NCBI GenBank assembly: GCA_016190925.1
Contig: JACPPQ010000109.1
Coordinates: 1,614 to 65,613 of the forward strand
DNA from: Chloroflexota bacterium
Lineage (GTDB): Bacteria > Chloroflexota > Dehalococcoidia > Dehalococcoidales > JACPPQ01
Direction of reading: 5' to 3'
Length of the DNA stretch: 64,000 nt
In this document: positions 22,147 through 50,210 of the stretch, in pieces
How the letters are laid out: every line of letters begins with the position of its first letter
Position numbering within the stretch: position 1 is the stretch's first letter
The notes under the pieces: model-generated
What the model saw: the letters and a program-made list of their open reading frames with translations, nothing else
What the model was told of the DNA's origin: nothing
The model's database searches: none
Made by a program: the position numbers and the translations under genes

Positions 22147-22167
22147 AAGAAGGAGGAAACATAGAAA

Positions 22168-25677: not shown

Positions 25678-25678
25678 T

Positions 25679-29879: not shown

Positions 29880-29982
29880 TGTAGGACAAGGGCTACATCT
29901 GGATATGGCAAACGTCCTACGGAATCAAGGGGTCACATCTTACAGACTTGCCGCAACACTAATTGATAGTATCAAAGGCAGA
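29880..29982 (+). promoter_or_regulatory. TGTAGG-box upstream element, divergent copy d
   Basis: The sequence is TGTAGGACAAGGGCTACATCTGGATATGGCAAACGTCCTACGG...CTAATTGATAGTATCAAAGGCAG. It keeps the closing helix (GTAGGAC/GTCCTAC) and the TAAT-GATAGT-CAAAG block. It lies upstream of the Isf-like/amidohydrolase pair. Confidence 0.5.
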
Positions 29983-30115
29983 TTCCCAAACATTTTCCTC
30001 AGCGAGTAGAGCATGCCCGAAATACCAATTGCTAATGTAAGTGGCAGAGAGGGCGGATAAACCGAAATTTAAGTATGGTTGTAACAAAATTAATTAACCT
30101 GGAGGGTAGGCAAGT

Positions 30116-30913: not shown

Positions 30914-30938
30914 CCGTCAAAATAAAGAAAGGAGAGAA

Positions 30939-32821: not shown

Positions 32822-33286
32822 CTATATCTCTATATGCAGGCCTTTGCCTATCTTCATGCAAACGAAAGCTTCGGTATCTCTCAATCCCTTGATTTTCACT
32901 GTCTCTCTATGCAAAAAGTCAGCAAGTTCATCAGCTGAACGAAATGCAGCAAATACCATGATATCAAAGCGTCCTGTGGTGCTTGAAATCCAGGCTACCT
33001 GCTGGTAGCTGGCCAGTTGTCTGACTGCTGCTTCAACCTTGTCCTGTTCTACGTCAAAAGCCAGCATAGTCAGAAAAGGAAATCCCGCTTTATAAGGGTC
33101 GACCAGGGCGGCTATCCGCAGTATTTGGCTTTCGGTTAATCTCTTCATCCGGCGTCTGACTGTAGACGGACTAATGCTGAGTTGCTTTGCCAGTGTTTCA
33201 CTTGACTGTTGGGGGTCGGTTCTTAATAGAGAGATAATCTGCCGGTCAACGGAATCCAACGGCTCTTCGTCGTTTCTCTTTCTCAT
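32822..33286 (-). CDS. Lrp/AsnC-family transcriptional regulator
   Basis: This 154-aa ORF has an N-terminal HTH (LDSVDRQIISLLRTDPQQSSETLAKQLSISPSTVRRRMKRL) followed by an AsnC-type ligand-binding domain. It is divergent from the 33876 operon. Confidence 0.85.
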   Translation of the reverse strand: MRKRNDEEPLDSVDRQIISLLRTDPQQSSETLAKQLSISPSTVRRRMKRLTESQILRIAALVDPYKAGFPFLTMLAFDVEQDKVEAAVRQLASYQQVAWISSTTGRFDIMVFAAFRSADELADFLHRETVKIKGLRDTEAFVCMKIGKGLHIEI

Positions 33287-33815: not shown

Positions 33816-33845
33816 TTGACATGCCTTAAAACGCCATGCTATAAT
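33816..33845 (+). promoter_or_regulatory. Near-consensus sigma-70-type promoter for the 33876 operon
   Basis: TTGACA at 33816..33821 is followed by an 18-nt spacer and TATAAT at 33840..33845. It lies 30 nt upstream of the ATG at 33876, in an AT-rich stretch. Confidence 0.6.
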
Positions 33846-35471: not shown

Positions 35472-35480
35472 GTTAAGCAT

Positions 35481-36308
35481 ATGGTTACAAAGCCAATCAG
35501 GGTCTTGATTGCCAAAGTAGGGCTGGATGGGCACGACCGTGGAGCCAAAATCATAGCCAAGGCATTGGCGGACACAGGTATGGAGGTTATTTACACTGGA
35601 ATACGCCAGACACCGGAGCAGGTGGTAAGCACGGCGATTCAGGAAGACGTGGACATTATCGGCCTGAGCAGCCTCTCCGGGGGGCATGAGGCCCTTTTCC
35701 CCAGAGTGGTCGAGCTCCTGAAGGCAAGGGGGAGCAATATCAGAGTAATCGGTGGCGGCATTATTCCTCCCGAAGACGCTTCGAAGCTGAAAAAACAGGG
35801 TATCGCCGAGATTTTCGGGCCGGGCACTCCTACCAAGGAAATTGTGCGCTTTATTAAAGGCGCTTGCCAGGAACCGGTTCGAGACGAGGAGAGTAAAATG
35901 CTCAAGCAAATTGACCATATCGGCATAGCCGTTCGTGATTTAGAGAAGTCTCTGGATAAGTATGCGGAGTTGTATGGGGCAAAGGCCACCCACACTGAGG
36001 TCATGGAGAGCCTGTCAATCAGTATTGCGTTTATACCGGTTGGTGAGGTACTGCTGGAGCTGCTTCAACCTCTTGCTCCGGGCAAAGGACGCATCGGTGA
36101 GTTTCTTGAAAAATACGGCGAGGGATTTCACCACATTGCCTACCGCGTGGATAACCTTGACCGGGTGCTGGCAAAGATGAAAGAAAATGGAATTAAATTG
36201 AGAGATGATAAGCCTCGCCCCGGCGCGGATAACACACGGATTGCATTCATAAGCCCTGAAGAGACCGGCAATGTGCTCACTGAACTGGTAGAAAGTAAGA
36301 AACTATGA
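35481..36308 (+). CDS. Fusion protein: B12-binding domain of acyl-CoA mutase + methylmalonyl-CoA epimerase (VOC fold)
   Basis: This is a 275-aa ORF. Residues 1-130 contain [20 protein letters not shown] (the DxHxxG cobalamin motif). Residues ~150-275 contain [15 protein letters not shown]...[13 protein letters not shown], which is epimerase/glyoxalase-like. Confidence 0.8.
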
Positions 36309-37870
36309 ACATACGGCAGCTCATAGAAGATAGAGTAGCTCGCAATCCGGCAAAGGTCTACCTCTATTTTGAAGACCAGCAGGTTACCTATGCCGATTTC
36401 AATGCGCAGATTAACAGAGTGGCGAACAGCCTGTGGAACGCGGGCATTCGCAAGGGCGACCGCTTTGCCATCATGTTGCCCAACTGCCCTGAGTTTCTGT
36501 ATGTCTGGTTCGGACTGAATAAGATTGGCGCTCTTGAAGTACCCATCAATAACAGCCTGAAGGGCGAGGAGGTCAAGTATATCCTGAAACACTCCGAGGC
36601 CAAAGGCATCGTAATTCATTCGGATTACCTGGCCCTGCTGGAAGGTATACGAGCGGAACTCCCGCAGTTGAAGCATGTGGTTGTATTTGGAAAAACTGCT
36701 GGGCTAGTCGGGGTAGTTCCCTATGAGTCATGGTTGAATTCCTCGTCCTCGGAGCCGCCGGTAGTGGAAATTGCAGAAGACGACCCCGCCGGTATCATCT
36801 ATACATCAGGGACCACCGGACTGCCAAAGGGTGTGCTTCTCTCTCACCGTGGCTGGGTGATGACGGGGGAATCCTATGCCTTTACAGTCGGTATCAAGGC
36901 CGATGACCGGGTTATGACACCCAACCCCCTCTTTCACGCCAATGCGCAATGTTACTCCACTATGGGAAGCCTGGCAGCCGGAGCAAGTCTCATCGTGATT
37001 AAGCGCTTCAGCCAGTCGGAGATACTGGAGCAGACCCGTCGGTATGGAGCTACTGTGCTGGTACTGGTGCAAGCGGTAACACCCTGGGTCTGGAGCCGGC
37101 CTGTTAAGCCTGATGATAAGGATAATCCGGTGAGGACGGTAGTTGCTGGGAACTGGCCTCCGGACATTTACAAAAAATTCGAGGAACGTTTCGGAGTAAA
37201 AAACCAGACTATCTACAGCCAGACCGAAGCCACGATGGCTATCATGGGACCCCGGGAGGGTACTCAACCGCGGAAGGCGGGGGGCATCGGGGTTCCTATG
37301 GAGCATCCCGACCCCTCGGTCAAAAACGAAGTGAAGATAGCCGACGAAAAGGGAGAAGAAGTCCCGTCCGGGCAGACAGGGGAGATATTAATCAAAAACC
37401 CGGCAGTGATGCTCGAATATTATAAAGACCCTGAAAAAACGGCTGAGACTAAACGGAATGGCTGGATTTACACCGGCGACACCGGTTACCGCGACGAAAC
37501 GGGCTACATTTTCTTTGTCGGAAGAAAAAAGCAACTCATTCGCCGGAGGGGTGAGCTTATATCTCCGGTGGAAATCGAAGAGGTGATTAATAAACATCCC
37601 AAAGTACAGGAATCAGCGGTTATTGGGATTCCTTCCGGGCTGGGAGTAGGAGAGGAAGAGATAAAGGTTTACGTTATGGCAAAGCCGGGCGAAACGGTGA
37701 CTCCCGAGGAGATTTGCAGTTGGTGCGGCGAAAAGCTGGCCGCGTTTAAGGTGCCCAAATATATTGAGTTTCGCACTGAGTTTCCACGGAGCTCTATCGG
37801 CAGGATTCAGAAAGAAGCACTCAAAGCGGAGAAGAAAGACCCACGAGAGGGCTGTTATGAGCGTAAGTAA
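36305..37870 (+). CDS. AMP-forming acyl-CoA synthetase/ligase
   Basis: This 521-aa ORF contains the AMP-binding motif [14 protein letters not shown] and the late motifs [21 protein letters not shown]. It overlaps the previous gene by 4 nt. Confidence 0.9.
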
Positions 37871-39224
37871 GACTTTGGCGGAAACGCAAAAACTGGTAAT
37901 AGAAGCGTACAAGCAAAAGACTGGCAAGTCCAGAGAACTGCACAAACGAGCTTGCGAGAGCCTCCAGGCGGGCGTATCGGCCAGCACCAGGTTTTATCCG
38001 CCATATCCCATATACATGACCCACGCAAAAGGCAGCAAGACCTATGACGTCGATGGCAACGAATATATAGATTGTTTTCTCTGTGCCGGACCTTTGATTC
38101 TGGGACACAACCGCCCGGAGGTTGTGGAAGCCATCAAGCGGGAAATCGACCGCGGCCTGCTTTTTTCAAATCCTGAGATGGTTATTGAATGCGCTGAACT
38201 GCTTAGGGAACTGGTCCCCTGTGCAGAGAAGATAAGACTTTGCAATACGGGCACCGAGGCAATACTCGCTGCCGTAAGAGCGGTCCGGGCCTTTACTGGC
38301 AAGGACAAGATTATCAAATTCTACGGCCATTACCACGGGCTGGAAGACCAGTTCCTGGTAGGCACCACAACTATAACCAACGCTCCCACCTCCGGGGGCA
38401 TCCCGAAGTCACATGTAGCGAATACCGTCCTGCTGAGATATGGCGATATCGAAGCAATAAAGCGAAAGTTTGACGAAGAGAATGATATTGCCGCTGTGAT
38501 TCTGGACCCTCAGATGAGCTACGAAGGTATCTGGCCTGCGAGCGTCGATTACCTGCGGGAACTGAGACGTCTAACTAAAGAACGGGGAATCGTCCTGATA
38601 TTCGACGAGGTAATAACCGGTTTCAGACTGGCCGCAGGAGGAGCGCAGGAATATTTCGGCATTATCCCCGATTTAGCCACTTTTGCCAAGGGCATGGCCG
38701 CTGGAGAAAAACTGGGGGCGGTAGTTGGCAGAGAGGATATCATGGACACCTTTTCCCCCACGGGATTCGTTCCCCCTTCAGGGGTAAAAGCGAGGGCTAT
38801 ACACGGAGGGACTTTTGCGGACTGCACGGCGGCCGTAGCCGCAGGGATAGCTTCTTTGAAGGTCTATAAACAATTGAAAAAAACGGGAGAATACCAGAAG
38901 CTCTTTCAGTTAACCGAAAAATTGAAAGCAGGCATAGAAGAGGCTTTCAAACAAAGGGGAGTACCCTGTCATGTAAACCAACTTGGCCCTTCAATCAAAA
39001 TTTTCATCACCGATTTGGAACCAGCCACCTTCGAGACTTATTGGAAGCTCGATAAAACTGCCATCTCGTTATTCTACCTGAGCATGATTCCTGAAGGTGT
39101 CTGGTTAGCCAATCCGAGCATGCGCTCGGTGTTCCTGTCCTTTGCTCACACCGAGCAAGATGTGGAGCAAATAGTTGCCGCGGTTAATACCGTTCTGGAT
39201 AAATACAGATTTGAACCTAGCTAA
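37857..39224 (+). CDS. Class-III PLP aminotransferase / glutamate-1-semialdehyde aminomutase-like
   Basis: The track ORF starts at 37764, inside the ligase gene. The ATG at 37857 gives [13 protein letters not shown]... Motifs IDCFLCAGPLILGHNRPEV and ATFAKGMAAGEKLGAV (PLP lysine region) are present. Confidence 0.8.
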   Translation: MSVSKTLAETQKLVIEAYKQKTGKSRELHKRACESLQAGVSASTRFYPPYPIYMTHAKGSKTYDVDGNEYIDCFLCAGPLILGHNRPEVVEAIKREIDRGLLFSNPEMVIECAELLRELVPCAEKIRLCNTGTEAILAAVRAVRAFTGKDKIIKFYGHYHGLEDQFLVGTTTITNAPTSGGIPKSHVANTVLLRYGDIEAIKRKFDEENDIAAVILDPQMSYEGIWPASVDYLRELRRLTKERGIVLIFDEVITGFRLAAGGAQEYFGIIPDLATFAKGMAAGEKLGAVVGREDIMDTFSPTGFVPPSGVKARAIHGGTFADCTAAVAAGIASLKVYKQLKKTGEYQKLFQLTEKLKAGIEEAFKQRGVPCHVNQLGPSIKIFITDLEPATFETYWKLDKTAISLFYLSMIPEGVWLANPSMRSVFLSFAHTEQDVEQIVAAVNTVLDKYRFEPS

Positions 39225-39256
39225 TTGGTTGCCTGAACACACAAAGAGAGGTGACT

Positions 39257-40267
39257 ATGAAAGTCATACAGTATGGTGTGGGTGACCTGGGTCAAACGGC
39301 AATTCGCCTGATGGCGAAGAAAGGGTACGAGGTAGTAGCCGCCATCGGCCGGAAGCGGTTTCTTAATGAAGACATCGGTGACATATCCGGCCTCGGCAGA
39401 AAGCTGGGCGTAAAAGTCACCGGCGATGCTGAAAGTGTGCTTGGGAAGGTAGAAGCCGATGTGGTCTGTCATATGACGGTAACGGATTTTGAAGAGGTCT
39501 ACCGGGAGATAATGCCCTGCGTGGAAGCCGGGCTAAACGTGGTTTCCATATCAGAGGAATTGAGCTATCCCTGGGACACTCATACCAGACTGGCCAGGGA
39601 GATGGACAAAAAGGCGAAATCGCGCCGTGTGACTGTGGTTGGAACGGGCATGAGTCCTGGCTGGGAGCATGACCTGCTCCCTTTAACTGTAGCCAGTGCT
39701 TGCGCCAGGGTCGATAGCATGAAAGTAATGAGAGTAAGTGACTGGAGCCACCAGGCCCGGAGCCGGGGCGATGTCCGGTTCGGGCGAAGCTTACCTGACT
39801 TCGAAGCCGGTGTCAGAAACGGGCAAATCCCGCTACATGCTGGTTTCCCGGAGGGATTGCATATGGTGGCTACTGCCCTGGGGTGGAAGCTGGACAGCAT
39901 TATAGACTGGTGGGAGCCGCTAGTATCGAAAAGCCTCCGCCAAGGCCCGGTGTATACCATTAAGGCTGGACAGACCTGCGGCTTCAAGCATGTTTCCATC
40001 GGATTAATCGACGGCGAAGCCAAACTGACTTTCGGGCTGACAGGAGTGGCAAACCCCGTCCCGGAAGAAGATGGAGAGATGGGCACATTTATCGAAATTG
40101 CAGGGGAACCGAACATAACCGTAAAAGAAGCAGGCTCGGACGTTCCCCTGGGGACAGTGGCGCGGGCGGTAAATTCCTTAAAGGCAGGGGTCGAGGCTCG
40201 GCCTGGTTTGCTTTCGGTGCTGGATTTACCGGTCGCGCCGCCGCTGCCGGACAGAAGTCATGTCTGA
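39257..40267 (+). CDS. DapB-fold NAD(P) dehydrogenase resembling 2,4-diaminopentanoate dehydrogenase / native amine dehydrogenases, paralog 1
   Basis: This ORF is 336 aa from the ATG at 39257 (GAGAGGTG ribosome-binding site). The N-terminal Rossmann segment reads KVIQYGVGDLGQ, followed by VVGTGMSPGW and ATALGWKLD. It is a paralog of 45311..46345. Confidence 0.6.
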   Translation: MKVIQYGVGDLGQTAIRLMAKKGYEVVAAIGRKRFLNEDIGDISGLGRKLGVKVTGDAESVLGKVEADVVCHMTVTDFEEVYREIMPCVEAGLNVVSISEELSYPWDTHTRLAREMDKKAKSRRVTVVGTGMSPGWEHDLLPLTVASACARVDSMKVMRVSDWSHQARSRGDVRFGRSLPDFEAGVRNGQIPLHAGFPEGLHMVATALGWKLDSIIDWWEPLVSKSLRQGPVYTIKAGQTCGFKHVSIGLIDGEAKLTFGLTGVANPVPEEDGEMGTFIEIAGEPNITVKEAGSDVPLGTVARAVNSLKAGVEARPGLLSVLDLPVAPPLPDRSHV

Positions 40268-40288
40268 GAAGCGAGTGGGGTTTGAAGT

Positions 40289-40561
40289 ATGGGGGTAAGA
40301 ATAAGGATACCGTATTCTCTGGTTCACTTGACCGGAGGCCAGTCGGCTGTGGAAGTGTTTGGTGACAATGTCGGAGAGTGCTTGGATTCTTTGCAGGCCA
40401 GGTTTCCGGAACTGAAAGCGACACTCTTCAATGAGGAAGGGAAGTTACGCGCGCTCTTCGATGTTTATGTGAATCACCAAAGCACTTATCCCGAGGGGTT
40501 GCTTCACCCGGTAAAAGGTGGTGATGAGCTTCTTCTCATCATGATAATCGGCGGTGGATAG
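40289..40561 (+). CDS. MoaD/ThiS-like ubiquitin-fold sulfur-carrier protein
   Basis: This 90-aa ORF ends in ...LLIMIIGGG, the C-terminal Gly-Gly typical of MoaD/ThiS. It sits inside the AOR-containing operon. Confidence 0.7.
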   Translation: MGVRIRIPYSLVHLTGGQSAVEVFGDNVGECLDSLQARFPELKATLFNEEGKLRALFDVYVNHQSTYPEGLLHPVKGGDELLLIMIIGGG

Positions 40562-40591
40562 CCTAATCCGATATGAATCGAGGAACCGTTT

Positions 40592-40900
40592 ATGGACAGA
40601 AGAATACAAAACGGGTTTGAGAGAGGCAAGAGTTTTGAAATAGAGGTGGATGGAACGAAGGTTAAAGCCTTCGAAGGTGAAACCATTGCTGCCGCTCTTC
40701 TTGCAGCGGGCAAGCGGACCACCTGCAAGAGTAACGCCAAAAAAGAAGCGAGGGGGCTCTATTGTGGCATGGGCGTCTGCATGGGATGCCGCATGATTGT
40801 CGATGGCAAGCCGAATACACTGGTATGCCAGACTCTGGCCACGCCGGATTGTAAGGTTAAAACACAGAATGCGCTTGAGAACTGGTGGGCTTCAAAATGA
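40592..40900 (+). CDS. Small [2Fe-2S] subunit (HcnA / opine-oxidase / proline-dehydrogenase gamma-like)
   Basis: This 102-aa ORF contains the Cys pattern CGMGVCMGCRMIVDGKPNTLVC. It is followed by HcnB-like and HcnC-like genes. Confidence 0.7.
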   Translation: MDRRIQNGFERGKSFEIEVDGTKVKAFEGETIAAALLAAGKRTTCKSNAKKEARGLYCGMGVCMGCRMIVDGKPNTLVCQTLATPDCKVKTQNALENWWASK

Positions 40901-42294
40901 AAGAAGTAGAAATTGCCATCATAGGAGGGGGACCGGGTGGTATCTGTGCCGCCGCTGAAGCGGCTAAATGCGGCGCGCATGTTGTCCTGCTTGATGAAAA
41001 TCCAGGCTTGGGCGGGCAAATTTACCGAAGGCTTCCCGGCGGTTTTGCTGTCAGGGATGAAGGCCGGCTGGGTAAGGACTACGTTGAGGGAACAAAACTC
41101 ATCAGAGAGCTGGAACAGCATAAGGAAAAGGTCGAAGTAATATCTGGCGCGGTAGTGTGGGGAGTTTTCCCTGGAAATGAAATTGCCTTCCTTAGCGGGG
41201 ACAGGAATGAGCGCCTGAAAGCGAATAGAGTCATTCTGGCCGAAGGTGCCTATGACAGACCTGTGCCCTTCCCCGGCTGGACGCTTCCGGGTGTTATCAC
41301 CGGCGGCGCAGCATTGAGAATGGTTAAGGCAGAGAGAATTTTGCCGGGCGAAAGGCTCCTGCTGGCGGGCACAGGGCCGTTGCAGCTTGCCCTCGGCGCA
41401 CATCTGGTGCAGGCTGGTGCTAAAGTGGTAGCCATCCTTGAAGCGAGCTCACGGGGCGCTTTTTGGAAGCATCTGCCCAAACTCCTGGGAGAGCGGGGAC
41501 TGCTCAAAGAAGGGTTCAATTATATCAGGGAGCTACAAAGAGCGAAAGTGCCGGTTCTCACGGGCCATGCCGTCGTTGCTGTGCAGGGCGATGGAGAAGT
41601 ACAACGAGCGGTTTATGCCAGGGTGGACAATAATTGGAAGACCATCTCTGGCACCGAGAAGACGGTAGAAGTGGACACCATTTGCAGTGGTTACGGTCTT
41701 GTGCCCTCTACCAGGCTGTCCAGGCTGTTCGGGTGCAAGCATAGCTGGGACCGCTCCCTCGGTGGCTGGGTCTCTGAGCACGACAGTTATGCGGAGACTA
41801 CTATCCAGGGTGTCTTTACGGTTGGCGAATGTGCTGGCGTAAGAGGCGCTCTGGTGGCAGCAGAGGAGGGACGTCTTGCTGCTATCAGAGCCTGCCAGCA
41901 ATTGGGGCGACTCTCAGAGGACGAGGCTCGGCGGAAAAGCGTTTCGGTAGTCAAGAGGTTGAAGAAGTTGACAGGCTTTGAATCCGCCCTCGGCAAGATG
42001 TTTGCCATGAGAAGCGGGCTATTCGCTCAAATACCGGACGAAACAGTGATTTGCCGGTGCGAGGAAATTACGGCGGGAGAAATCCGCAGTGCCATCGCTG
42101 AGGGGCTGACCAGTATTGATGAAATCAAGGCAGTAACTCATGCGGGGATGGGGCCTTGCCAGGGGCGGATATGCGAAACCATTGTCTCCGAGATGGTATC
42201 CATTCAAACCGGACGGCCACCGGAAGAGGTAAGGCCTCATACTCCACGTCCACCGGTTAAGCCCCTGGTCCTGGGAAGCTTTGCTCAAGAATAG
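40897..42294 (+). CDS. FAD/NAD(P) pyridine-nucleotide-disulfide-type oxidoreductase with BFD-like [2Fe-2S] domain (HcnB/OoxA-like)
   Basis: I prefer the ATG at 40897, which forms an ATGA overlap with the upstream stop. The dinucleotide-binding motif is IAIIGGGPGG, and the BFD-like motif is CRCEEITAGEIRSAI...GMGPCQGRIC. Confidence 0.75.
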   Translation: MKEVEIAIIGGGPGGICAAAEAAKCGAHVVLLDENPGLGGQIYRRLPGGFAVRDEGRLGKDYVEGTKLIRELEQHKEKVEVISGAVVWGVFPGNEIAFLSGDRNERLKANRVILAEGAYDRPVPFPGWTLPGVITGGAALRMVKAERILPGERLLLAGTGPLQLALGAHLVQAGAKVVAILEASSRGAFWKHLPKLLGERGLLKEGFNYIRELQRAKVPVLTGHAVVAVQGDGEVQRAVYARVDNNWKTISGTEKTVEVDTICSGYGLVPSTRLSRLFGCKHSWDRSLGGWVSEHDSYAETTIQGVFTVGECAGVRGALVAAEEGRLAAIRACQQLGRLSEDEARRKSVSVVKRLKKLTGFESALGKMFAMRSGLFAQIPDETVICRCEEITAGEIRSAIAEGLTSIDEIKAVTHAGMGPCQGRICETIVSEMVSIQTGRPPEEVRPHTPRPPVKPLVLGSFAQE

Positions 42295-42303
42295 CAGTGA
42301 GGA

Positions 42304-43461
42304 ATGTCAACAATGAAGCAGGAAACGGAAATAGTGGTGGCGGGTGGGGGTATAACCGGTACGGCAACCGCATACTACCTGGCAAAAGCGGGCAAAGACG
42401 TTGTCCTGGTCGAGAGGGGAGACCTGACCCGGGGCTCCTCGGCGGCCAATGCCGGGTTTGTTTGGATAACCTACCGCGCCCCTGGTCCCGCTTTGCGGTT
42501 GGGTTTGGCCACTCTTGATAGCTACGATGAAATGAGCAAGAACCATGACATGGAGTATGAGAAGTGCGGGGGCTTGACCCTTTTTGAAACCGAGAACCTG
42601 TTTAAGGACATGGCTCCCTTTGTTGATGTGCGGAAAAACGCAGGGCTGTCTGGGCTCAAGTTCCTGGATAGAAATGGGCTTTTGCAACTGGAACCGCATT
42701 TAGCTCCTTTTGTGTTAGGAGCATTGTTAAATCCACTGGACGGCCACATCAATCCGATGCGCGCAGTATATGCTTACGCCGCCGAAGCCAGGAAGCATGG
42801 CGCGCAACTCCACACCGGCGTAGAAATAACCGGCATCAACATCGAAAAAGGACATGTGAAGTCGGTTATCACTAACAAAGGTGAGATAAAAACAAAATAT
42901 ATCGTCAATGCCTGTGGTGCTCATGCGCCGGTCTTGGGCAAGATGGTAGGCTTGAAGGTCCCCATCGGCTTTCAGAGGGAGCAGATACTGGTCAGTGAAG
43001 AAGTCCCCGGGATTGTAGGCAGACCGATGTTCACCGCCAGCTACAAAAAAACGGTGCAGCAGGGTGGGGTTGGAGGGTTTACCACGGCCTTCTTCGCCAA
43101 TCAGACTAAAAAAGGCAATTTGATATTGGGGGGCGTCAACGATTTCCCGGGCGAAGTCACCAGCACCACCTTCGAAGCCTTTGAGGCTATCAGCCGGGAG
43201 GCGATAAGGTATTTGCCTATCCTGAAGACCCTGTCAGTACGCGCCATCAGGAGCTTCGCTAAATTTTACATCCACACACCGGATGCGCTGCCTGTCCTGG
43301 GGAAGGTCAAAGGGATAGAGGGATTCATTATGGCAAGCGGGCTCAATGATTTTGGCATGGGCGTTGGGCCGGGAGCGGGCAAGGTTATCTCTGAACTCAT
43401 CTGTCTTGGAGAGCCTTCTATCCCGCTCGATGGATTCAGTCTATCCAGATTTGAGAATTAG
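42304..43461 (+). CDS. FAD-dependent amine/amino-acid oxidoreductase (DAO family; HcnC/OoxB-like)
   Basis: This 385-aa ORF contains IVVAGGGITGTATAYYLAKAGKDVVLVERG. Length and position match the third subunit of HcnABC-type complexes. Confidence 0.75.
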   Translation: MSTMKQETEIVVAGGGITGTATAYYLAKAGKDVVLVERGDLTRGSSAANAGFVWITYRAPGPALRLGLATLDSYDEMSKNHDMEYEKCGGLTLFETENLFKDMAPFVDVRKNAGLSGLKFLDRNGLLQLEPHLAPFVLGALLNPLDGHINPMRAVYAYAAEARKHGAQLHTGVEITGINIEKGHVKSVITNKGEIKTKYIVNACGAHAPVLGKMVGLKVPIGFQREQILVSEEVPGIVGRPMFTASYKKTVQQGGVGGFTTAFFANQTKKGNLILGGVNDFPGEVTSTTFEAFEAISREAIRYLPILKTLSVRAIRSFAKFYIHTPDALPVLGKVKGIEGFIMASGLNDFGMGVGPGAGKVISELICLGEPSIPLDGFSLSRFEN

Positions 43462-43476
43462 GGAGGTCGAATAGAA

Positions 43477-45288
43477 GTGTACGGTTGGACGGGAAAGATA
43501 TTGAGGGTTGATTTATCCAGGGGAAAGACTTCTATCGAAGAGCTGGACCCAAAGGTGGCCAGGACTTACTTCGGGGGACGCGGACTGGGAGCGCGATACT
43601 TGTTGGACGAGGTTGACCCCGGGATAGAGCCGCTGAGCGAAGGAAACAAGCTCATGTTTGCCGCCGGGCCGGCAACAGGTGCTCCGATAGTGAGTGGAAA
43701 TCGATACAATGTTGTCACCAAGTCTCCGTTGACCGGGACCATTGCTGGACCGAGCTCCGCGGGATTCTGGGCGCCGGAATTGAAATTTGCCGGGTACGAT
43801 ATGGTTATCGTGGAAGGAAAGGCTAAGAATCCGGTATACGTCTGGATAGAAGATGACAAAGTTGAAATCAGGCCTGCGTCTCATCTCTGGGGGAAATCCA
43901 CCAACGAAACCCAGAAGGAAATCCGCAATGAGACCCGGCCGGAAACCAAAGTCGCCAGTATCGGCCCGGCAGGTGAGAGACTGGTCAGGTTTGCCTGCGT
44001 CATAAACGATGAAGGACGGGCGGCAGGGCGCGGAGGTGTTGGGGCTGTTGCCGGCTCAAAGAATTTGAAGGCAATTGCGGTAAGAGGTACTAAAAAAGTT
44101 CCCATAGCTGATACTGTTGAACTGAAGAGAATTGTGACCAGAATCCTGGGAAAGATGCCCAAGCCGTCAGGCCTCTCGCTGGGTGGAACACCATATGTAT
44201 TTGCCAGCGTCCAGGAGATTGGTATATTACCCACCAGGAATTTCCAGACCGGGGTTTTCGAGGGCTGGGAAAAAATAAGCGGTCAAGCGGTCAATAAAGA
44301 AGTGGTCTACAAGCACAGCGCCTGCTACCGCTGCCCGATTGGCTGCGGAAGATTAAGCCGGGTGACCAAGGCCCCCTTTGAAGGCGAAGGGGCAGGACCG
44401 GAATATGAGGGACTGTATGCCCTGGGTTCCAACTGTGGCGTGGATGATTTGTCTGCGGTGGTGAAAGCCTTTTTCCTCTGCAATGAGCTTGGGATGGATG
44501 TCATGAGTTGTGGTGCCACCATTGCTTGCGCCATGGAACTGTCCCAGAAGGGTTTTCTGCCGGAGAAAGACGTTGGAATGAAACTGAATTTCGGCGATGG
44601 CAGGACGCTGGTAGAGATGGTCAGGAAAACGGGGATGAGAGAGGGGTTTGGCGACCTCATCGCCGAGGGTTCCTACCGGCTGGCGGAAAGGTATGGTCAC
44701 CCTGAGCTTTCCATGAGCGTCAAAAAACAGGAACTGGCCGGCTATGACCCGCGTGGCGTGCAGGGACTTGGACTGGGATATGCCGTCTCGACAAGGGGTG
44801 CCTGCCATGTGCGCGGCGAAATCAACAACGCCGAGATTTGGGGAGCGCCTGTGAAACTGGACCGTCTAGCCACGAAGGGCAAGGCCAGCTACCTGATAAC
44901 CATTCAGGATGAGATTGCTGCCAGCGACTCGATGGGGATATGCCAGTTCTGCGGTGGTTACAAGATTGGCGTAGACGCCGTTATCGAAGAGATGGAACTG
45001 GTGAGCGGAGTTGACCTCTGGGCTGAAGGATTCTATCAAATGGGCGAAAGAATATGGAATATGGAAAAGATTTTCAACATGATGGCGGGCTTTACCGCCG
45101 CAGATGATACCCTCCCTAGGAGATTTCTTGAAGAACCCATGCCGGAGGGACCTACCAAAGGGCATGTTTGCAGACTTTGGGAGATGCTGCCCGAATATTA
45201 CCATCTGAGGGGCTGGGATAAAGAGGGAAGGCCAACCAGGGACAAGCTGAAAGAGCTTGGCCTCCTTGAATTTGCCAGGAAAATTTAA
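43477..45288 (+). CDS. aor: Aldehyde:ferredoxin oxidoreductase family (tungstopterin type), paralog 1
   Basis: This 603-aa ORF starts with GTG. The N-terminus reads MYGWTGKILRVDLSRGK. The cluster motif CYRCPIGC and the pterin-region motif GLGYAVSTRGACHVRG are present. Confidence 0.9.
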   Translation: MYGWTGKILRVDLSRGKTSIEELDPKVARTYFGGRGLGARYLLDEVDPGIEPLSEGNKLMFAAGPATGAPIVSGNRYNVVTKSPLTGTIAGPSSAGFWAPELKFAGYDMVIVEGKAKNPVYVWIEDDKVEIRPASHLWGKSTNETQKEIRNETRPETKVASIGPAGERLVRFACVINDEGRAAGRGGVGAVAGSKNLKAIAVRGTKKVPIADTVELKRIVTRILGKMPKPSGLSLGGTPYVFASVQEIGILPTRNFQTGVFEGWEKISGQAVNKEVVYKHSACYRCPIGCGRLSRVTKAPFEGEGAGPEYEGLYALGSNCGVDDLSAVVKAFFLCNELGMDVMSCGATIACAMELSQKGFLPEKDVGMKLNFGDGRTLVEMVRKTGMREGFGDLIAEGSYRLAERYGHPELSMSVKKQELAGYDPRGVQGLGLGYAVSTRGACHVRGEINNAEIWGAPVKLDRLATKGKASYLITIQDEIAASDSMGICQFCGGYKIGVDAVIEEMELVSGVDLWAEGFYQMGERIWNMEKIFNMMAGFTAADDTLPRRFLEEPMPEGPTKGHVCRLWEMLPEYYHLRGWDKEGRPTRDKLKELGLLEFARKI

Positions 45289-45310
45289 TAGTCAACCGAG
45301 GAGTGCAGAA

Positions 45311-46345
45311 ATGCAGAAAGCTAAAGTAATCCAGTGTGGTCTGGGAGCTATAGGTGTAGAGGTAAGCAAATTAATTCTGGAAAAGAAAGATATCGAGCTC
45401 GTGGCCGCAACCGATATCGCAAAACAACTGATAGACAAGGACCTGGGTCAGGTTCTGGGTCTGGAGCGCAAGCTCGGTATAAAAGTGAGGGATGATGCCG
45501 GGGAAGTGTTCAGGAAGACTGATGCCGATGTGGTAGTGGTTACAACCAGCAGCCATTTCGAGCGGATATTCGGCACCGTCAGGGAAGCGCTTTCGGCTGG
45601 CAAGAATGTAATCACCACCTGCGAAGATGCGTGCTTCCCGTGGACCAGAAATCCGGACTTGTCGCGCCAGATTGATGAATTAGCCAAAAGCAAGGGAGTT
45701 ACTTTCCTGGGCACCGGAATAAACCCGGGTTTTATGATGGACTACTTGCCCATAGCCCTCACCGGCATTATGAAAAGGGTGGACAAGGTTCGCATTCGCC
45801 GGGTGGCTAACATGGCTACCTGCGGCCTCACCGATTGGGAACTTTTCGGGTACGGAAAAAAGCTCGAGGCCTTTAACGAAGGGCTGGCTAAAGGGCAAAT
45901 CGGGGGGTTCATCGCCTTCAGGCAGATTATGGAGATGATAGCCCGGGCGCTTCAATGGGGAAAGATAGATTATGAGGAAGAAAAAGAAGGCTTGATTACC
46001 AGGTCCAGGCGGGTGGCCAAGGCCGGTGTGGTGGAGCCGGGCACCGTATACTCGGTCAAACAGACTGCGCGTGGCCTGAAGCAAGGCAAGGAAGTTATTG
46101 CCTTTGAGGAGTTTTTTGTCATCAATCCCAGCCTCGAAGAAGATGATTTGGAAGTTGGAAATTTCGCCACCATCGAGGGAGAGCCATCGGTAGTGGTCAA
46201 TGCCACCGGGCAGCAGGCTTCCCAGATGGCTGCCACGACCGCCGCTCATGTGGTGAACTCGATACCTGCCGTGATTGAGGGGCCGCCGGGATTGCTCACA
46301 GTATATGAGTTACCGCCATCACCTTGCTTGCCGGGGAAGGAATAA
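45311..46345 (+). CDS. DapB-fold dehydrogenase (2,4-diaminopentanoate dehydrogenase / amine dehydrogenase-like), paralog 2
   Basis: The track ORF starts at 45257, but the ATG at 45311 follows GAGGAG. The sequence contains KVIQCGLGAIGVEVSK, FLGTGINPGFMMDYLP and ARALQW. Confidence 0.6.
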   Translation: MQKAKVIQCGLGAIGVEVSKLILEKKDIELVAATDIAKQLIDKDLGQVLGLERKLGIKVRDDAGEVFRKTDADVVVVTTSSHFERIFGTVREALSAGKNVITTCEDACFPWTRNPDLSRQIDELAKSKGVTFLGTGINPGFMMDYLPIALTGIMKRVDKVRIRRVANMATCGLTDWELFGYGKKLEAFNEGLAKGQIGGFIAFRQIMEMIARALQWGKIDYEEEKEGLITRSRRVAKAGVVEPGTVYSVKQTARGLKQGKEVIAFEEFFVINPSLEEDDLEVGNFATIEGEPSVVVNATGQQASQMAATTAAHVVNSIPAVIEGPPGLLTVYELPPSPCLPGKE

Positions 46346-46347
46346 AC

Positions 46348-48228
46348 ATGTCTTTTGATGCGTGCGGATATACGGGAAAGCTATTGAGGGTCGACCTATC
46401 AAGCGGGAAAATTTCAGTCGAGCCGCTGAATATGGCCTGGGCCAGGCAATATATTGGCTGCCAGGGACTGGGCGTGAGATACCTGTTCGAAGAGCTGGCT
46501 CCCGGAATCGACCCTCTGGGACCGGAAAGTAAGATAGTCCTTCTCACAGGACCGCTTACAGGGACTATTGCCCCGTGCTCTCCTAAATACACGCTGATTT
46601 TTAAGTCGCCGCTGACCAATATACTCTACGATAGCACGTCGGGCGGGTATTTCGGTGCCGAGCTTAAATATGCCGGCTACGATGGCCTCATAATAGAAGG
46701 AAAATCGCCAAAACCGGTCTATCTTTTAATCAGAGACCAGAGGGTTGAGCTTCAGGATGCTGCCCGGATTTGGGGTAAAGATACCTTTACCGCCACTGAT
46801 ATGCTCAAACAGTGGTGGGGAGACGACCTGAGAGTTACGGTCATTGGCCTGGCGGGGGAAAACCAGGTCAGATTTGCCAGCGTTCTGACGGAATATGCTA
46901 AAGCCAACGGCAGGGCTGGTGGCGGGGCAGTCTTTGGCGCCAAGAACCTTAAGGCCATAGCGGTCAAAGGCTCCGGCTCGGTAAGTGTGGCCAATCCGGA
47001 GGCACTGGTTGAACTCTCACTGAAATTGATGGCGGAAACCCTGGTTGAAAACCCGGAGCAGCTGGTGTTCACCGGTTGGAAGGGTGGAGAAGGCACTATA
47101 AGCATAATGGACTGGGCTAATGATTATGGCTGCCTGCCCACCAGGAATTTCCAGGCTGGCAGCTTCGACAGAAAAAGCAAGATAGATGCCAGGGAAGTCA
47201 AGAAAATCACCAAGAAGGAGAAAGCCTGCTTCTCCTGTCCTATGGGTTGTGCGCATCAGGTTAAGATAGAGCAAGGCCAGCACAAGGGGACTGGAGTAGG
47301 TAGCTTCGAATACGAGAGCATAGCCATGCTTGGCTCGAACTGCGATATCAGTGACCTGGCTGTCGTTGCCAAACTGAACGAGCTATGCAATAAACATGGC
47401 ATGGATACTATCACCGCAGGAAACGTAATCGGCTGGGCAATGGACTGTTTTGAGAGAGGTCTCCTTACCGAGAAGGATACGAACGGTCTGCCCTTGCGCT
47501 TCGGCAACAATGAGGCCGCCATCGAGTTACTGGAAAAAATTGCTAGGAGAGAGGGAATCGGAGCCCTCCTGGCTGAGGGAGTAGCCAGGGCTTCAGCCAG
47601 AGTCGGGAAAGGCTCGGAAGAATTCGCCATGCATGTCAAAGGGCTGGAAATCCCCGCTTATGACCCCAGGGTAGCCATCGGAATGGGGCTTGCCTATGCC
47701 ACCGCTCCTCCGGGTGCGGCGCATACCCGCGCGTTCCCCATCAGCGGCGCCCTCTTTGGCGGATGGTGGGTTGGTGCCGACCCGGTCAAGCTGGACCCCA
47801 GAAAGCCGGAAAATTTTGCGCAGGTATGCATCCAGCAAAACCACTGGCAGGCTTACCGGTTCAGCACCGGCCACTGCGATTTCGGCCTGCTGGAGCCGGG
47901 ATGGAAACTCCCTGAACTGCTGGAAAACTGTACCGGGTGGCCGGAGATAAAGGACTGGAGAAAAATCGGCGAAAGGATTATCAACACCTACCGGCTATTC
48001 AGCATCAGGGAAGGAATCAGTCGGAAAGATGATACTCTACCTGCAGCATTCTTCAAGAAACCTCTTCCGGCTCCGGCGGAAGGCGCGGTCATCTCTCCGG
48101 AAGATTTCGAATTCATGTTGAACGAGTATTACGAACTCAGAGGCTGGGACCACGAGGGCAGGCCCACTCAGGAAAAGCTGAGAGAGCTTGGTATCCAAGA
48201 ACTTGGACTTAAGATTGGAGTTAGATAG
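46348..48228 (+). CDS. aor: Aldehyde:ferredoxin oxidoreductase family, paralog 2
   Basis: The track ORF starts at 46324. The ATG at 46348 follows GGGGAAGGA and lies 2 nt after the previous stop. The sequence contains YTGKLLRVDLSSGK and CFSCPMGC. Confidence 0.9.
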   Translation: MSFDACGYTGKLLRVDLSSGKISVEPLNMAWARQYIGCQGLGVRYLFEELAPGIDPLGPESKIVLLTGPLTGTIAPCSPKYTLIFKSPLTNILYDSTSGGYFGAELKYAGYDGLIIEGKSPKPVYLLIRDQRVELQDAARIWGKDTFTATDMLKQWWGDDLRVTVIGLAGENQVRFASVLTEYAKANGRAGGGAVFGAKNLKAIAVKGSGSVSVANPEALVELSLKLMAETLVENPEQLVFTGWKGGEGTISIMDWANDYGCLPTRNFQAGSFDRKSKIDAREVKKITKKEKACFSCPMGCAHQVKIEQGQHKGTGVGSFEYESIAMLGSNCDISDLAVVAKLNELCNKHGMDTITAGNVIGWAMDCFERGLLTEKDTNGLPLRFGNNEAAIELLEKIARREGIGALLAEGVARASARVGKGSEEFAMHVKGLEIPAYDPRVAIGMGLAYATAPPGAAHTRAFPISGALFGGWWVGADPVKLDPRKPENFAQVCIQQNHWQAYRFSTGHCDFGLLEPGWKLPELLENCTGWPEIKDWRKIGERIINTYRLFSIREGISRKDDTLPAAFFKKPLPAPAEGAVISPEDFEFMLNEYYELRGWDHEGRPTQEKLRELGIQELGLKIGVR

Positions 48229-48231
48229 AAC

Positions 48232-48690
48232 GTGGCTAAAGTGTTTTCCATAGATGCGAAAAAGTGTACGGGGTGCAAGCTTTGTGAGCTGATTTGCTCC
48301 TTTCACCACAACGGCGTCTTCAAGCCTTCGGTTTCACGGATAAGAGTCAAGCTGAACACCAGGGAAGGCACCGCTCAACCGTTGATATGCCGCCAGTGTA
48401 AAAAATGCACGTGTATAGAGGTATGCAGGCCAGGGGCAATTAGCCAGGATGAGAAAACCGGAGTGATAACCATCGACCATGCTAAATGCACCGGGTGCAA
48501 AGAATGTATATTTACCTGTCCTTTCCAGGCCGTTGGTTTTGAGGAGGAACCGAAAGGAGTTGCAATAGTTTGCGACCACTGTGGAGGCAAGCCAGAATGT
48601 GTAAAAGTCTGCTTTCCCGGAGCACTAAAATATATTGACAAAGAAACATCCTGGGCACCTACCAGGCAAGATACAACGAGTCGAGCTTAA
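48232..48690 (+). CDS. Polyferredoxin with four [4Fe-4S]-type Cys motifs (AorA-like electron-transfer subunit)
   Basis: This 152-aa ORF starts with GTG 3 nt after AOR-2. Its Cys motifs are CTGCKLCELIC, CRQCKKCTCIEVC, CTGCKECIFTC and CDHCGGKPECVKVC. Confidence 0.8.
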   Translation: MAKVFSIDAKKCTGCKLCELICSFHHNGVFKPSVSRIRVKLNTREGTAQPLICRQCKKCTCIEVCRPGAISQDEKTGVITIDHAKCTGCKECIFTCPFQAVGFEEEPKGVAIVCDHCGGKPECVKVCFPGALKYIDKETSWAPTRQDTTSRA

Positions 48691-48720
48691 CGTAAATCAT
48701 AGTAAAATAGGAGGGGTCAT

Positions 48721-49506
48721 ATGACAGTCAGAATTCTTGGTATTTCGGGAAGTCCTCGGCATGGGAACACTGAAATCGCTCTCAAAGAGGCCTTGGCTGG
48801 CGCCGCCGAAGTAAAGGACGTAGAAACGGAGCTGTATAGCATTGTCGGTAAAACGCTAAACCCGTGTACCGGGTGCTTTAAGTGCGGGACTGAAGAAGCT
48901 ACTCCGGAAATTCCCTGTCCGCAGTGGGGAGATGATGACATCACCAAACTGGTCAGAAGAATGAGGGACGATTTTGATGGGTTCGTGATTGGCAACCCGG
49001 TGTATATCGGTACCATCTCTGCCCAGATTAAAATGATTTTCGACAGGGCAATCATGATGACCGAGGGCGGCAGGCTGGGTCCCGTAACTCTAAGAAACAA
49101 GGTCTGCGGTGTTGTGATTAGCTCCTGGGACAGGAACGGAGGACATGATTTAGCCGCAATCGATACCTGGAGATGGGCTATTCTCCACGACATGATAGTG
49201 GTCGGTGTAGGACCGGAGAGAATAGATTGTAACAACTATTGGGCAGGATGTGTGGTTCAGGCCTATACTCCCAATCATCCCGACGGTGGCAAAGGAATCT
49301 GGTGGGCCAAGGCTAATTCGTTAGAGGAGCGGACCGCGGTCAAGTTTGATACACTGGGGCTCGCTCAATGCCGGAACACCGGCCGGCGAGTGGCAGAGTT
49401 GGCCAAAGTAATCAAGGCTGGCTTCGACAGTCTTAGCCGGGAGGATACCTACTGGCCGCGCGGCGGATGCGGAGGTTTTGAAGGGACAGCCTGGGGCAGC
49501 AAATAG
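48721..49506 (+). CDS. Isf-like iron-sulfur flavoprotein, paralog 3
   Basis: This 261-aa ORF begins RILGISGSPRHGNTE. It carries CTGCFKC-x10-C and GNPVYIGTISAQIKMIFDR, plus the shared C-terminal block GRRVAELAKVIKAGF. Confidence 0.65.
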   Translation: MTVRILGISGSPRHGNTEIALKEALAGAAEVKDVETELYSIVGKTLNPCTGCFKCGTEEATPEIPCPQWGDDDITKLVRRMRDDFDGFVIGNPVYIGTISAQIKMIFDRAIMMTEGGRLGPVTLRNKVCGVVISSWDRNGGHDLAAIDTWRWAILHDMIVVGVGPERIDCNNYWAGCVVQAYTPNHPDGGKGIWWAKANSLEERTAVKFDTLGLAQCRNTGRRVAELAKVIKAGFDSLSREDTYWPRGGCGGFEGTAWGSK

Positions 49507-49745: not shown

Positions 49746-50210
49746 GTGTTGCAGATTGATAAAGAAAAATGTACAGGGTGCAGATTATGTGAGATGATGT
49801 GCTCCTTTCGCCACGAAGGGGAATGCAGCACTGCAAAATCACGTATCAAAATCCTGAAAGATGAAGAATTCGGGAACTGCCTGGTGCTGGTATGCATGAA
49901 CTGTGAAGATGCTCCCTGTGTAGCCAGTTGTCCGACGGAAGCATTCAAAAAAGATGACAATAGCGGAATAGTAGCGCTTGATGAGTCTCTCTGTATCGGG
50001 TGCGAGGCCTGCATTGGCGTCTGCCCGATGGAAACTATAGTTCTGGATAAAGATAAAAACACCGTTTTCAAGTGCGACCTGTGCGGCGGCGACCCTGAAT
50101 GTGTGAAGTGGTGTACCAGGGGAGCGATAAAGGAAAACGACATCGGCTGGCAAGCCAGGCAAGCCTACATCGAGCAGGCAAATAAAATGCGAAGTCCAAA
50201 CAGCGCTTAA
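49746..50210 (+). CDS. Polyferredoxin (AorA-like), paralog 2
   Basis: This 154-aa ORF starts with GTG. Its Cys motifs are CTGCRLCEMMC, CMNCEDAPCVASC, CIGCEACIGVC and CDLCGGDPECVKWC. It is collinear with 48232..48690. Confidence 0.8.
   Translation: MLQIDKEKCTGCRLCEMMCSFRHEGECSTAKSRIKILKDEEFGNCLVLVCMNCEDAPCVASCPTEAFKKDDNSGIVALDESLCIGCEACIGVCPMETIVLDKDKNTVFKCDLCGGDPECVKWCTRGAIKENDIGWQARQAYIEQANKMRSPNSA

Follow-up and report, generated by a model that had tools for sequence, protein, structure and literature searches.

A small clade of HcnABC/opine-oxidase-like dehydrogenases genetically linked to tungsten aldehyde:ferredoxin oxidoreductase, viewed from a Chloroflexota locus

Secondary-amine oxidation by strict anaerobes, whether of polyamines, N-methyl amino acids, opine-like compounds or cyclic imines, is poorly charted, and the known members of the multi-subunit dehydrogenase family considered here are mostly aerobic or without a known physiological partner. 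The family comprises OdhABC/Oox, D-hydroxyproline dehydrogenase, HCN synthase and archaeal L-proline dehydrogenase (Watanabe et al., PMC4575208). It is marked by alpha, beta and gamma subunits, by two N-terminal ADP-binding motifs and by cysteine motifs that read C-x4-C-x2-C-x11-12-C in gamma and C-x-C...C-x4-C in alpha, the latter with a quoted spacer of X15-20; an Arg-X-Trp (R-x-W) of beta has been proposed for binding flavin mononucleotide (FMN) (PMC4575208). In Aromatoleum, a tungsten aldehyde:ferredoxin oxidoreductase (AOR) handles the aldehydes that arise when amines are degraded anaerobically (PMC10413684); the products of aorD and aorE there are MoaD-like and stand outside the purified enzyme (PMC6365974). 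The locus described here lies in a 64,000-nucleotide stretch of a Chloroflexota bacterium (assembly GCA_016190925.1, contig JACPPQ010000109.1, positions 1,614 to 65,613), hereafter the window. Five consecutive genes encode a MoaD-like protein, the gamma, alpha and beta subunits of a predicted dehydrogenase of this family, and an AOR (AOR-1).

Judged from their sequences, the genes at 40592-43461 are the gamma, alpha and beta subunits of an enzyme of the OdhABC/OoxAB, LhpBEF, HcnABC and archaeal proline dehydrogenase (PDH) family, an assignment made because of their domains, their cysteine motifs, full-length homology to OoxA and the match of the beta fold to PDH1 beta. The gamma cluster C58-GMGV-C-MG-C-x12-C79 conforms to the published motif. 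Alpha carries a flavin adenine dinucleotide (FAD) motif (GGGPGG, at residue 14), a second nucleotide-binding fold, a BFD-type [2Fe-2S] domain and an SO_alpha_A3 domain; the spacer of its cluster C390-R-C-x32-C-QGRI-C exceeds the published X15-20, and Fer2_BFD is nonetheless matched at 1e-12. The GxGxxG motif of beta is GGGITG, likewise at residue 14. The R-x-W position of beta reads R316-S-F, and clade members have RSW, RSF or RGY, the aromatic residue being kept and the tryptophan not. Identity to the proteins of pTiA6 is 32% for alpha against OoxA (457 aa, 5e-58) and 39% for gamma against the Oox (2Fe-2S) protein (2e-13). The earlier note on this DNA, made from the letters alone, had described the five open reading frames with these lengths, domains, gaps and ATGA overlap and had placed the three middle proteins in an HcnABC/opine-oxidase-like family; the open reading frame list and Pfam bear out the former, and the motifs, the OoxA homology and the PDH1 beta match the latter. 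Its BFD motif, given as CxC...CxxxC, is corrected to C390-x-C-x32-C-x4-C.

The catalytic beta subunit defines the more restricted group in which the locus belongs. Beta is 24% identical to OoxB and about 26% to PDH1 beta. The best relative in the PDB is Pyrococcus horikoshii PDH1, both for alpha (1y56_A, 3.5e-20) and for beta (1y56_B, 9e-40, or 7e-63 with the profile of the clade), and an AlphaFold2 model of beta (pLDDT 89, pTM 0.90) is superposed by Foldseek on 1y56_B with a TM score of 0.91 and a root-mean-square deviation of 1.7 A. Further neighbours of the fold are sarcosine oxidase beta, glycine oxidase and dimethylglycine dehydrogenase (DMGDH), and the close neighbours of beta are all oxidisers of C-N bonds in amines or amino acids, whereas homologs with non-amine substrates would have spoken against the earlier proposal. 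No NCBIfam equivalog model claims any of the three subunits. An exhaustive HMMER search over 1.84 billion representatives recovered a single cluster with at least 50% identity and about seven with at least 40%. In a neighbour-joining tree the clade stands apart from PDH1 beta and OoxB; of the four relatives against which a phylogeny had been proposed earlier (HcnC, OoxB, LhpB and PDH beta), it covers these two. On this sequence evidence the beta clade appears small and without a characterised member. Genomes were scanned for beta with a pattern built from an eight-sequence alignment, a single beta query having found nothing in the GTDB genomes. Two architectures occur among the loci recovered (denoted by L and a number): a fused alpha in the window, L001, L005, L090 and L174, and, in L002, L008 and L088, a split form in which alpha is shorter and BFD/A3 is a small protein of its own, alongside beta, gamma and an additional 2x[4Fe-4S] protein.

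An AOR gene adjoins the dehydrogenase genes at five loci with differing gene orders, namely the window, L174, L090, L088 and L008. L174 is a stand-alone four-gene operon, gamma-alpha-beta-AOR, set off from its neighbours by 670 and 458 nt, and L090 a stand-alone five-gene operon, AOR-ThiS-gamma-alpha-beta, of 39.5% GC and with proteobacterium-like flanks. L088 reads ThiS-BFD-beta-gamma-alpha-Fer4-AOR. L008, from a second Chloroflexi metagenome-assembled genome, reads BFD-beta-AT3-gamma-alpha-Fer4-AOR-AmDH-AOR2-Fer4-FMN_red and retains, at 52-71% identity, counterparts of the window's transaminase, AOR-2, ferredoxin, FMN_red and one amine dehydrogenase. The AOR lies 5-6.5 kb from the dehydrogenase in the L002 and L005 locus types. 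Beyond the clade, a tblastn survey of fetched loci (at least 8 kb, beta below 36% identity) found AOR in 0 of 102, alpha being kept in 90. The presence of AOR in six of the nine locus types of the clade, a figure from which L174 was left out since it was found through its AOR, differs from this at a Fisher p of 3.7e-8, a value that overstates independence given that the loci are phylogenetically related. The dehydrogenase-AOR linkage, in this survey confined to the beta clade, is the main new result. Recurrence of the same gene set elsewhere shows that the five-gene arrangement exceeds chance, and its persistence through five or more gene orders speaks for selection on the linkage.

AOR-1 itself is, by sequence comparison, a classical AOR of generic type and does not belong to a partner clade dedicated to the dehydrogenase, which appears to recruit a generic AOR. 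Its best PDB matches are 9mqx_D (2e-198) and 1aor (3.7e-193), followed by formaldehyde ferredoxin oxidoreductase (FOR, 1b25, 3.9e-103), WOR5 (1e-74) and BamB (1e-64), and the [4Fe-4S] cysteine motif is CYRCPIGC at residue 283 (CxxCxxxC). A dedicated formaldehyde oxidoreductase is ruled out, AOR-1 being nearer to classical AOR than to FOR. Nor is it a private lineage, because orthologues occur alone, beside another flavoenzyme or in an Aromatoleum-type locus. The closest orthologue (63%, L172 446-5194) has as neighbours a saccharopine-dehydrogenase-like gene and one for a PF01593 flavin amine oxidase, beyond which lie a TRAP transporter, a corrinoid protein and URO-D; here an unrelated flavoenzyme is paired with the same type of AOR.

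The favoured reading, and a fairly probable one, is that AOR-1 oxidises the aldehyde product of the C-N dehydrogenase. By analogy with characterised relatives, beta would form an imine by oxidising a C-N bond in either a secondary or tertiary amine or a cyclic imino compound, FMN sitting at the alpha/beta interface as elsewhere in the family. Water would then convert the imine to an aldehyde and a freed amine, or to a ring-opened amino-aldehyde. AOR-1, being classical and broad in range, would oxidise the aldehyde irreversibly to the acid and pass low-potential electrons to ferredoxin. The AOR step would pull amine oxidation forward and remove a reactive aldehyde without O2 or an NAD-dependent aldehyde dehydrogenase. 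The pair would constitute one of three amine-to-aldehyde-to-acid steps encoded in the operon, the other two would run through the transaminase and both NAD(P) amine dehydrogenases in combination with AOR-2/3 and the ferredoxins that go with them. Once activated by the CoA ligase, the acids would pass to methylmalonyl-CoA epimerase and mutase. The earlier note had proposed such a coupling for a secondary amine or imino acid. Its functional link between dehydrogenase and AOR is supported by a linkage that is conserved, rearranged and specific to the beta clade; beyond this linkage, the gene content and the family membership seen in sequence, motifs and fold, we infer the substrate class, the aldehyde product, the direction, the electron acceptor and complex formation.

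Predicted genes at related loci keep pointing to amines as substrates. MttB together with a corrinoid protein lies near the dehydrogenase in three locus types (L002, L005, L092), and saccharopine-dehydrogenase-like genes and RidA are further amine-type neighbours. Some of the MttB genes carry a single in-frame TAG at the conserved ...AGG*ADSK... (L005 4495-6033 and 6355-7821; L092 1034-2635, minus strand) and are probably bacterial pyrrolysine-containing trimethylamine methyltransferases; L005 also holds a pterin-binding methyltransferase. The amine theme extends to the PF01593 amine oxidase beside the AOR-1 orthologue of L172 and, in the window, to the AsnC/Lrp-type regulator, the transaminase and the two amine dehydrogenases of the operon. 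Three unproven candidates for the substrate may be named. Polyamine-type or omega-amino secondary amines are put forward because the enzyme count fits spermidine, with one C-N oxidation at a secondary amine and three at primary ones, several AORs, and a path from succinate to methylmalonyl-CoA. The second are the N-methyl or N-alkyl amino acids that MttB-type demethylation leaves behind, and the third are cyclic imino acids.

Several observations weigh against coupling, beginning with the relatedness of the loci noted above. No AOR is present in the visible sequence of L001, L009/L091 and L092, three locus types of the clade, and in L009/L091 and L092 beta occurs without alpha or gamma. Conversely, AOR-1 orthologues are found alone (L173) or in other contexts (L175, L176), and the MoaD-like gene is missing in L008 and L174. 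Nearby TRAP transporters suggest carboxylated substrates and fit free polyamines poorly. The fold also oxidises primary alpha-amines to 2-oxo acids or HCN, as in HcnABC and D-amino-acid dehydrogenases, yielding no aldehyde. The closest characterised beta subunits are only 24-26% identical, and the substrate class is to that extent extrapolated.

In a reading without coupling, the complex makes a 2-oxo acid from an alpha-amino or imino acid, as HcnABC and D-amino-acid or D-hydroxyproline dehydrogenases do, and AOR-1 only serves aldehydes from the transaminase and amine dehydrogenases, or detoxification. Family members with such chemistry exist (PMC4575208), the operon encodes other aldehyde-generating enzymes, AOR-1-like genes occur without the complex, and glycine oxidase (ThiO) is the top NCBIfam match of beta, though far below cutoff. 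What makes this account rather unlikely is that the isolated operons L174 and L090 consist of complex and AOR (plus ThiS in L090) without transaminase or amine dehydrogenase, and that the linkage persists across at least five gene orders while being restricted to the beta clade.

A sub-case of coupling is oxidative N-demethylation, in which sarcosine, dimethylglycine, dimethylamine or another N-methyl amine would yield free formaldehyde for oxidation by AOR-1 to formate. Release of formaldehyde as such is envisaged because alpha has no folate-binding domain like that of SoxA and DMGDH: it stops past the A3 domain, at 465-469 aa, and the GCV_T domain is absent. DMGDH and SoxB are among the best PDB matches of beta, the MttB and corrinoid genes of L002, L005 and L092 stand beside the complex (two of these locus types with the in-frame TAG), and creatininase- and hydantoinase-family genes occur near related loci and also upstream in the window. 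However, neither MttB nor a corrinoid methyltransferase is found anywhere in the 64 kb, by which a methylamine pathway in the window itself is ruled out. AOR-1 groups with classical AOR (1aor, 4e-193) and not with FOR (1b25, 4e-103), and the transaminase and amine dehydrogenases conserved in the window, L008 and L088 imply longer carbon skeletons. N-demethylation appears rather improbable.

The coupled enzymes could also be a single redox machine, with dehydrogenase and AOR bridged by Fer4 in the split loci and with high-potential electrons of the amine/imine step and low-potential electrons of the aldehyde/acid step confurcated on alpha to NAD(P)+. The order Pyr_redox_2 - Fer4 - AOR in L002, L008 and L088 mimics AorC-AorA-AorB, alpha has a second nucleotide-binding fold, and, on thermodynamic grounds, the flavin amine dehydrogenase of a fermenter would need an acceptor. 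Yet the argument is purely architectural, the bridging Fer4 is absent from the form in the window, and alpha shows neither BLAST similarity to the AorC-like protein of L175 nor a PDB match to AorABC (8c0z), which makes the machine distinctly unlikely; an AorC-like electron module for AOR is ruled out as the role of alpha by the same two comparisons. A fuller version would make gamma/alpha/beta and AOR, with the bridging ferredoxin of the split forms, a dedicated anaerobic four-electron machine for turning secondary or tertiary amines into carboxylates, possibly as one complex, with low-potential electrons of the tungsten site and high-potential flavin electrons merged to reduce NAD(P)+, and serving polyamines or the N-alkyl and N-methyl amines left after MttB-type demethylation. 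This version is a speculative proposal of low probability; if true, it would supply a missing oxygen-independent route for those amines.

The first of the five genes is best considered together with AOR. The 90-aa protein matches the moaD_arch and SAMP1 models below cutoff, and its best PDB relatives are CysO-type carriers (4n6e_B, 2.5e-10), not MoaD proper. A homologue search with it returned only two matches, and AOR homologues were used to sample contexts instead. L088 has an orthologue in the equivalent position (45-48% identity by tblastn and alignment), and a GG-ended ThiS adjoins AOR in L090 and L175. The latter locus reads Fer4-AOR-ThiS-AorC-like with an additional ThiF, that is, the aorA-aorB-ThiS-aorC type without the DAO complex, and its ThiS is 32% identical, GG-ended and placed between AOR and the AorC-like flavoprotein. 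Such genes had been named earlier as companions of bacterial AOR operons, and L175 and the Aromatoleum aorD/aorE (PMC6365974) agree with that. Because the gene follows AOR in L090 and in L175, where the DAO complex is missing, and has counterparts in the AOR operon of Aromatoleum, its product would on sequence grounds serve maturation of the tungsten cofactor, as a GG-terminated sulfur carrier feeding tungstopterin synthesis for AOR, and not act as a dehydrogenase subunit. No MoaE or E1 (MoeB/ThiF) partner is encoded in the 64-kb window; at L175, ThiF lies beside the AOR-ThiS pair.

The protein could instead take part in thiazole synthesis as the ThiS-type partner of a ThiO-like glycine oxidase, or be a dehydrogenase subunit with a structural role. 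The CysO-type relatives, the top NCBIfam rank of ThiO for beta and the position of the gene directly 5' of the dehydrogenase genes, before gamma in the window and also in L088, are in keeping with this. Beta is far nearer to PDH beta than to ThiO, however, the carrier gene is absent from L001, L002, L005, L008 and L174, all of which have the dehydrogenase complex, and the gene comes after AOR at L090 and at L175, the latter locus having no DAO protein. The thiazole variant is ruled out by the absence of Thi genes from the window, where ThiG, ThiF and ThiH were not found, and the reading as a whole is very unlikely.

Table 1. Coordinates of the dehydrogenase-AOR gene set and of the surrounding operon within the 64-kb window.
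Feature	Position	Strand	Basis and remarks
AsnC/Lrp-type regulator, divergent from operon	32822..33286	-	HTH_AsnC-type + AsnC_trans_reg
Promoter-like site	33816..33845	+	TTGACA-18-TATAAT with TG; 12/12 sigma-70 consensus match, consensus match only
Methylmalonyl-CoA mutase, large (substrate) subunit	33876..35471	+	MM_CoA_mutase 8e-194; NCBIfam acid_CoA_mut_N
B12-binding mutase domain fused to methylmalonyl-CoA epimerase	35481..36308	+	B12-binding + Glyoxalase_4; TIGR03081 112 bits, cutoff 115
AMP-forming acyl-CoA ligase	36305..37870	+	AMP-binding; 64% identical orthologue in L088
Class-III aminotransferase, glutamate-1-semialdehyde aminomutase (GSAM)/beta-transaminase-like	37854..39224	+	Aminotran_3; PDB GSAM 1e-80, beta-transaminases
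NAD(P)-dependent amine dehydrogenase 1 (2,4-diaminopentanoate dehydrogenase / native amine dehydrogenase (nat-AmDH) family)	39251..40267	+	DAP_DH_C
MoaD/ThiS-family sulfur-carrier-like protein	40289..40561	+	90 aa, ends ...IIGGG; ThiS PF02597 9.7e-7
Gamma subunit, [2Fe-2S]	40592..40900	+	102 aa; Fer2_4 1.5e-22; C58-x4-C-x2-C-x12-C79
Alpha subunit	40897..42294 (ATG, 465 aa) or from 40885 (GTG, 469 aa)	+	Pyr_redox_2 + Fer2_BFD + SO_alpha_A3
Beta (catalytic) subunit, DAO-family FAD dehydrogenase	42304..43461	+	385 aa; DAO 2.2e-65
AOR-1, predicted classical tungsten AOR	43477..45288	+	603 aa, GTG start; AFOR_N + AFOR_C
Amine dehydrogenase 2, family as amine dehydrogenase 1	45311..46345 (may start TTG 45257)	+	DAP_DH_C, DapB_N
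AOR-2	46348..48228 (may start TTG 46324)	+	AFOR_N/C; 70% orthologue in L008
AorA-like poly-[4Fe-4S] ferredoxin	48232..48690	+	Fer4 families; 36% identical to L175 AorA-like protein
FMN_red flavoprotein	48721..49506	+	FMN_red; CxxCxxC...C motif; 71-76% orthologues in L008, L088
Second AorA-like ferredoxin	49746..50210	+	
AOR-3	50236..52116	+	

Within the five-gene set, 30 nt separate the MoaD-like gene from gamma, gamma and alpha overlap by 4 nt, and 9 and 15 nt precede beta and AOR-1, respectively. The overlap is an ATGA shared by the ATG start of alpha and the stop of gamma; the NCBI annotation (P0001) begins beta three codons downstream and gives 382 aa. The set is not a separate unit and lies inside a longer plus-strand run at 33876-49506 with gaps of at most 30 nt, which resumes past a 239-nt gap to reach 52116 and in which the genes follow one another from the mutase to AOR-3 in the order of Table 1. 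The operon probably extends to 52116 and counts 15-18 genes. Its probable start is the promoter-like site, an extended sigma-70 consensus 30 nt 5' of the first gene, and a scan found no convincing terminator within it. The fusion of a B12-binding domain to the glyoxalase-fold epimerase at 35481-36308 is unusual. Orthologues of the aminotransferase in L008 and L088 are 56-57% identical. No Rfam riboswitch that might hint at the ligand was found in the window.

A reductive, biosynthetic direction may be considered for the operon as a whole, with AOR drawing on reduced ferredoxin to turn a carboxylate into an aldehyde, from which the amine would be formed by the flavoenzyme, the transaminase or the amine dehydrogenases. 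AORs do reduce acids in some anaerobes (PMC10413684 and work cited there), and nat-AmDHs and transaminases are reversible. Amine synthesis is not known for DAO-family dehydrogenases, though, and the transporters, CoA ligase, mutase/epimerase and regulators make up a catabolic context, which renders this direction extremely improbable.

The two amine dehydrogenases form a related theme. Amine dehydrogenase 1 matches 7xdu (9e-60) and AmDH4 (6g1h, 1e-48) in the PDB and scores 230 bits with the Ord model, under its cutoff of 400. Orthologues of amine dehydrogenase 2 are 52% identical in L008 and 70% in L092/L093, the latter adjoining a DAO gene (L092 3520-6070). Amine dehydrogenase 2 lies directly 5' of AOR-2 (45257/45311-48228), and the pair is kept in L008 (7988-11399). 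This suggests a second type of amine-to-acid unit, made of an NAD(P) amine dehydrogenase followed by AOR, in which nat-AmDHs may find a physiological context. The FMN_red protein at 48721-49506 has a CxxCxxC-x10-C motif that recalls iron-sulfur flavoproteins; no other gene of the cluster is as well conserved, and the protein may provide the AORs with an electron outlet. A second FMN_red flavoprotein is encoded at 22168-22950 (plus strand).

Outside the operon, the 64 kb contain five paralogues of UbiD-family (prenylated-FMN) decarboxylases, at 5451-6917 (minus), 12427-14037, 20710-22146, 59000-60439 (minus) and 61411-62844, one of which adjoins a phenylphosphate-carboxylase-gamma-like open reading frame (6953-7252). 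In L009/L091, two UbiD genes and one for a PreA-like DHO_dh/Fer4 protein accompany the DAO gene. A plus-strand cluster at 15743-24469 encodes hydantoinase A/B, an acetone-carboxylase-gamma-like protein, two isochorismatase-family hydrolases, UbiD, an FMN_red paralogue and a nitroreductase; by gene content alone it resembles the enzyme set leading from N-methylhydantoin via N-carbamoylsarcosine to sarcosine. On the minus strand at 24490-27088, an HMG-CoA-synthase-like (ACP_syn_III) domain is fused to a DUF35/ChsH2 zinc-ribbon OB-fold beside an SCP-x-type thiolase, an archaeal-style thiolase/HMG-CoA synthase/DUF35 set with a gene fusion; thiolase and DUF35 also occur 5' of the L088 module. At 27420-32471 (plus), an MEDS-PAS-HisKA_3 sensor kinase and a LuxR-type response regulator precede a 547-aa dihydropyrimidinase/hydantoinase-like amidohydrolase, and these genes may regulate the amine operon and supply a ring-opening step ahead of its reactions.

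The enzyme family, AOR and the logic of amine to aldehyde to acid are already known. New are the uncharacterised beta clade, its conserved coupling to a tungsten enzyme and minimal operons that are directly testable; no description of the module was found in the literature on AOR with sarcosine oxidase, on polyamines with Chloroflexi or on MttB with dimethylglycine. That the module recurs in unrelated anaerobes points to a hitherto undescribed way of converting secondary amines into carboxylic acids without oxygen. Such a coupling would be a concrete two-enzyme route by which toxic (amino)aldehydes are removed and low-potential electrons conserved, and it could explain the fate of the products of quaternary-amine demethylation in sediments and aquifers. 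The four- and five-gene operons L174 and L090 are amenable to heterologous work, and the loci as a group offer a physiological context for nat-AmDHs and AORs, enzyme groups of biocatalytic interest.

Among described systems, OdhABC and OoxAB with the (2Fe-2S) protein (Pseudomonas putida, Bradyrhizobium japonicum, Ti plasmids; PMC4575208) share three components and cofactor motifs with the window. The fused alpha of Pyr_redox_2, BFD and A3 is common to both, and the opine enzyme likewise cleaves a secondary amine. Unlike what is proposed here, the opine enzymes yield a 2-oxo acid and an amino acid and feed an aerobic chain, and their loci have no AOR or MoaD neighbour; pTiA6 holds RidA and ornithine cyclodeaminase instead. 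PDH1 (PH1363/PH1364, PDB 1Y56), the best solved relative of both large subunits, comes from an anaerobe, and its product pyrroline-5-carboxylate is in equilibrium with an aldehyde. It differs in that a gamma-like domain is fused to alpha, without a BFD/A3 tail like that of alpha in the window, and the literature searched reports no genetic link between PDH1 and AOR. SoxABGD and DMGDH share the beta fold and the A3 domain, and their N-alkyl cleavage gives an aldehyde equivalent; they differ in trapping the C1 unit on tetrahydrofolate through GCV_T, in using O2 or electron-transferring flavoprotein as acceptor and in having no Fe-S subunits. HcnABC and LhpBEF belong to the same alpha4beta4gamma4-type family according to PMC4575208, are likened to the window enzyme by description, and do not form aldehydes.

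On the AOR side, AorABC of Aromatoleum aromaticum with aorD/aorE (PMC6365974, PMC10413684) combines a tungsten AOR with MoaD-like operon genes, as does the window, and L175 is an Aromatoleum-type AOR locus within the sequence neighbourhood of AOR-1. In contrast to AorABC, AOR-1 has no adjacent AorA (Fer4) or AorC, while AOR-2 and AOR-3 have AorA-like neighbours; the amine dehydrogenases of Aromatoleum are quinohemoproteins, unlike those of the window. Aerobic pairs of an amine oxidase or dehydrogenase with an NAD-dependent aldehyde dehydrogenase, such as spermidine dehydrogenase and PauC (PMC12006823), share the two-step course from C-N oxidation via an (amino)aldehyde to the acid. Compared with these pairs, the window would replace both halves by a ferredoxin-linked tungsten enzyme for the aldehyde step and an Fe-S flavoprotein for the amine step, a combination suited to anoxia.

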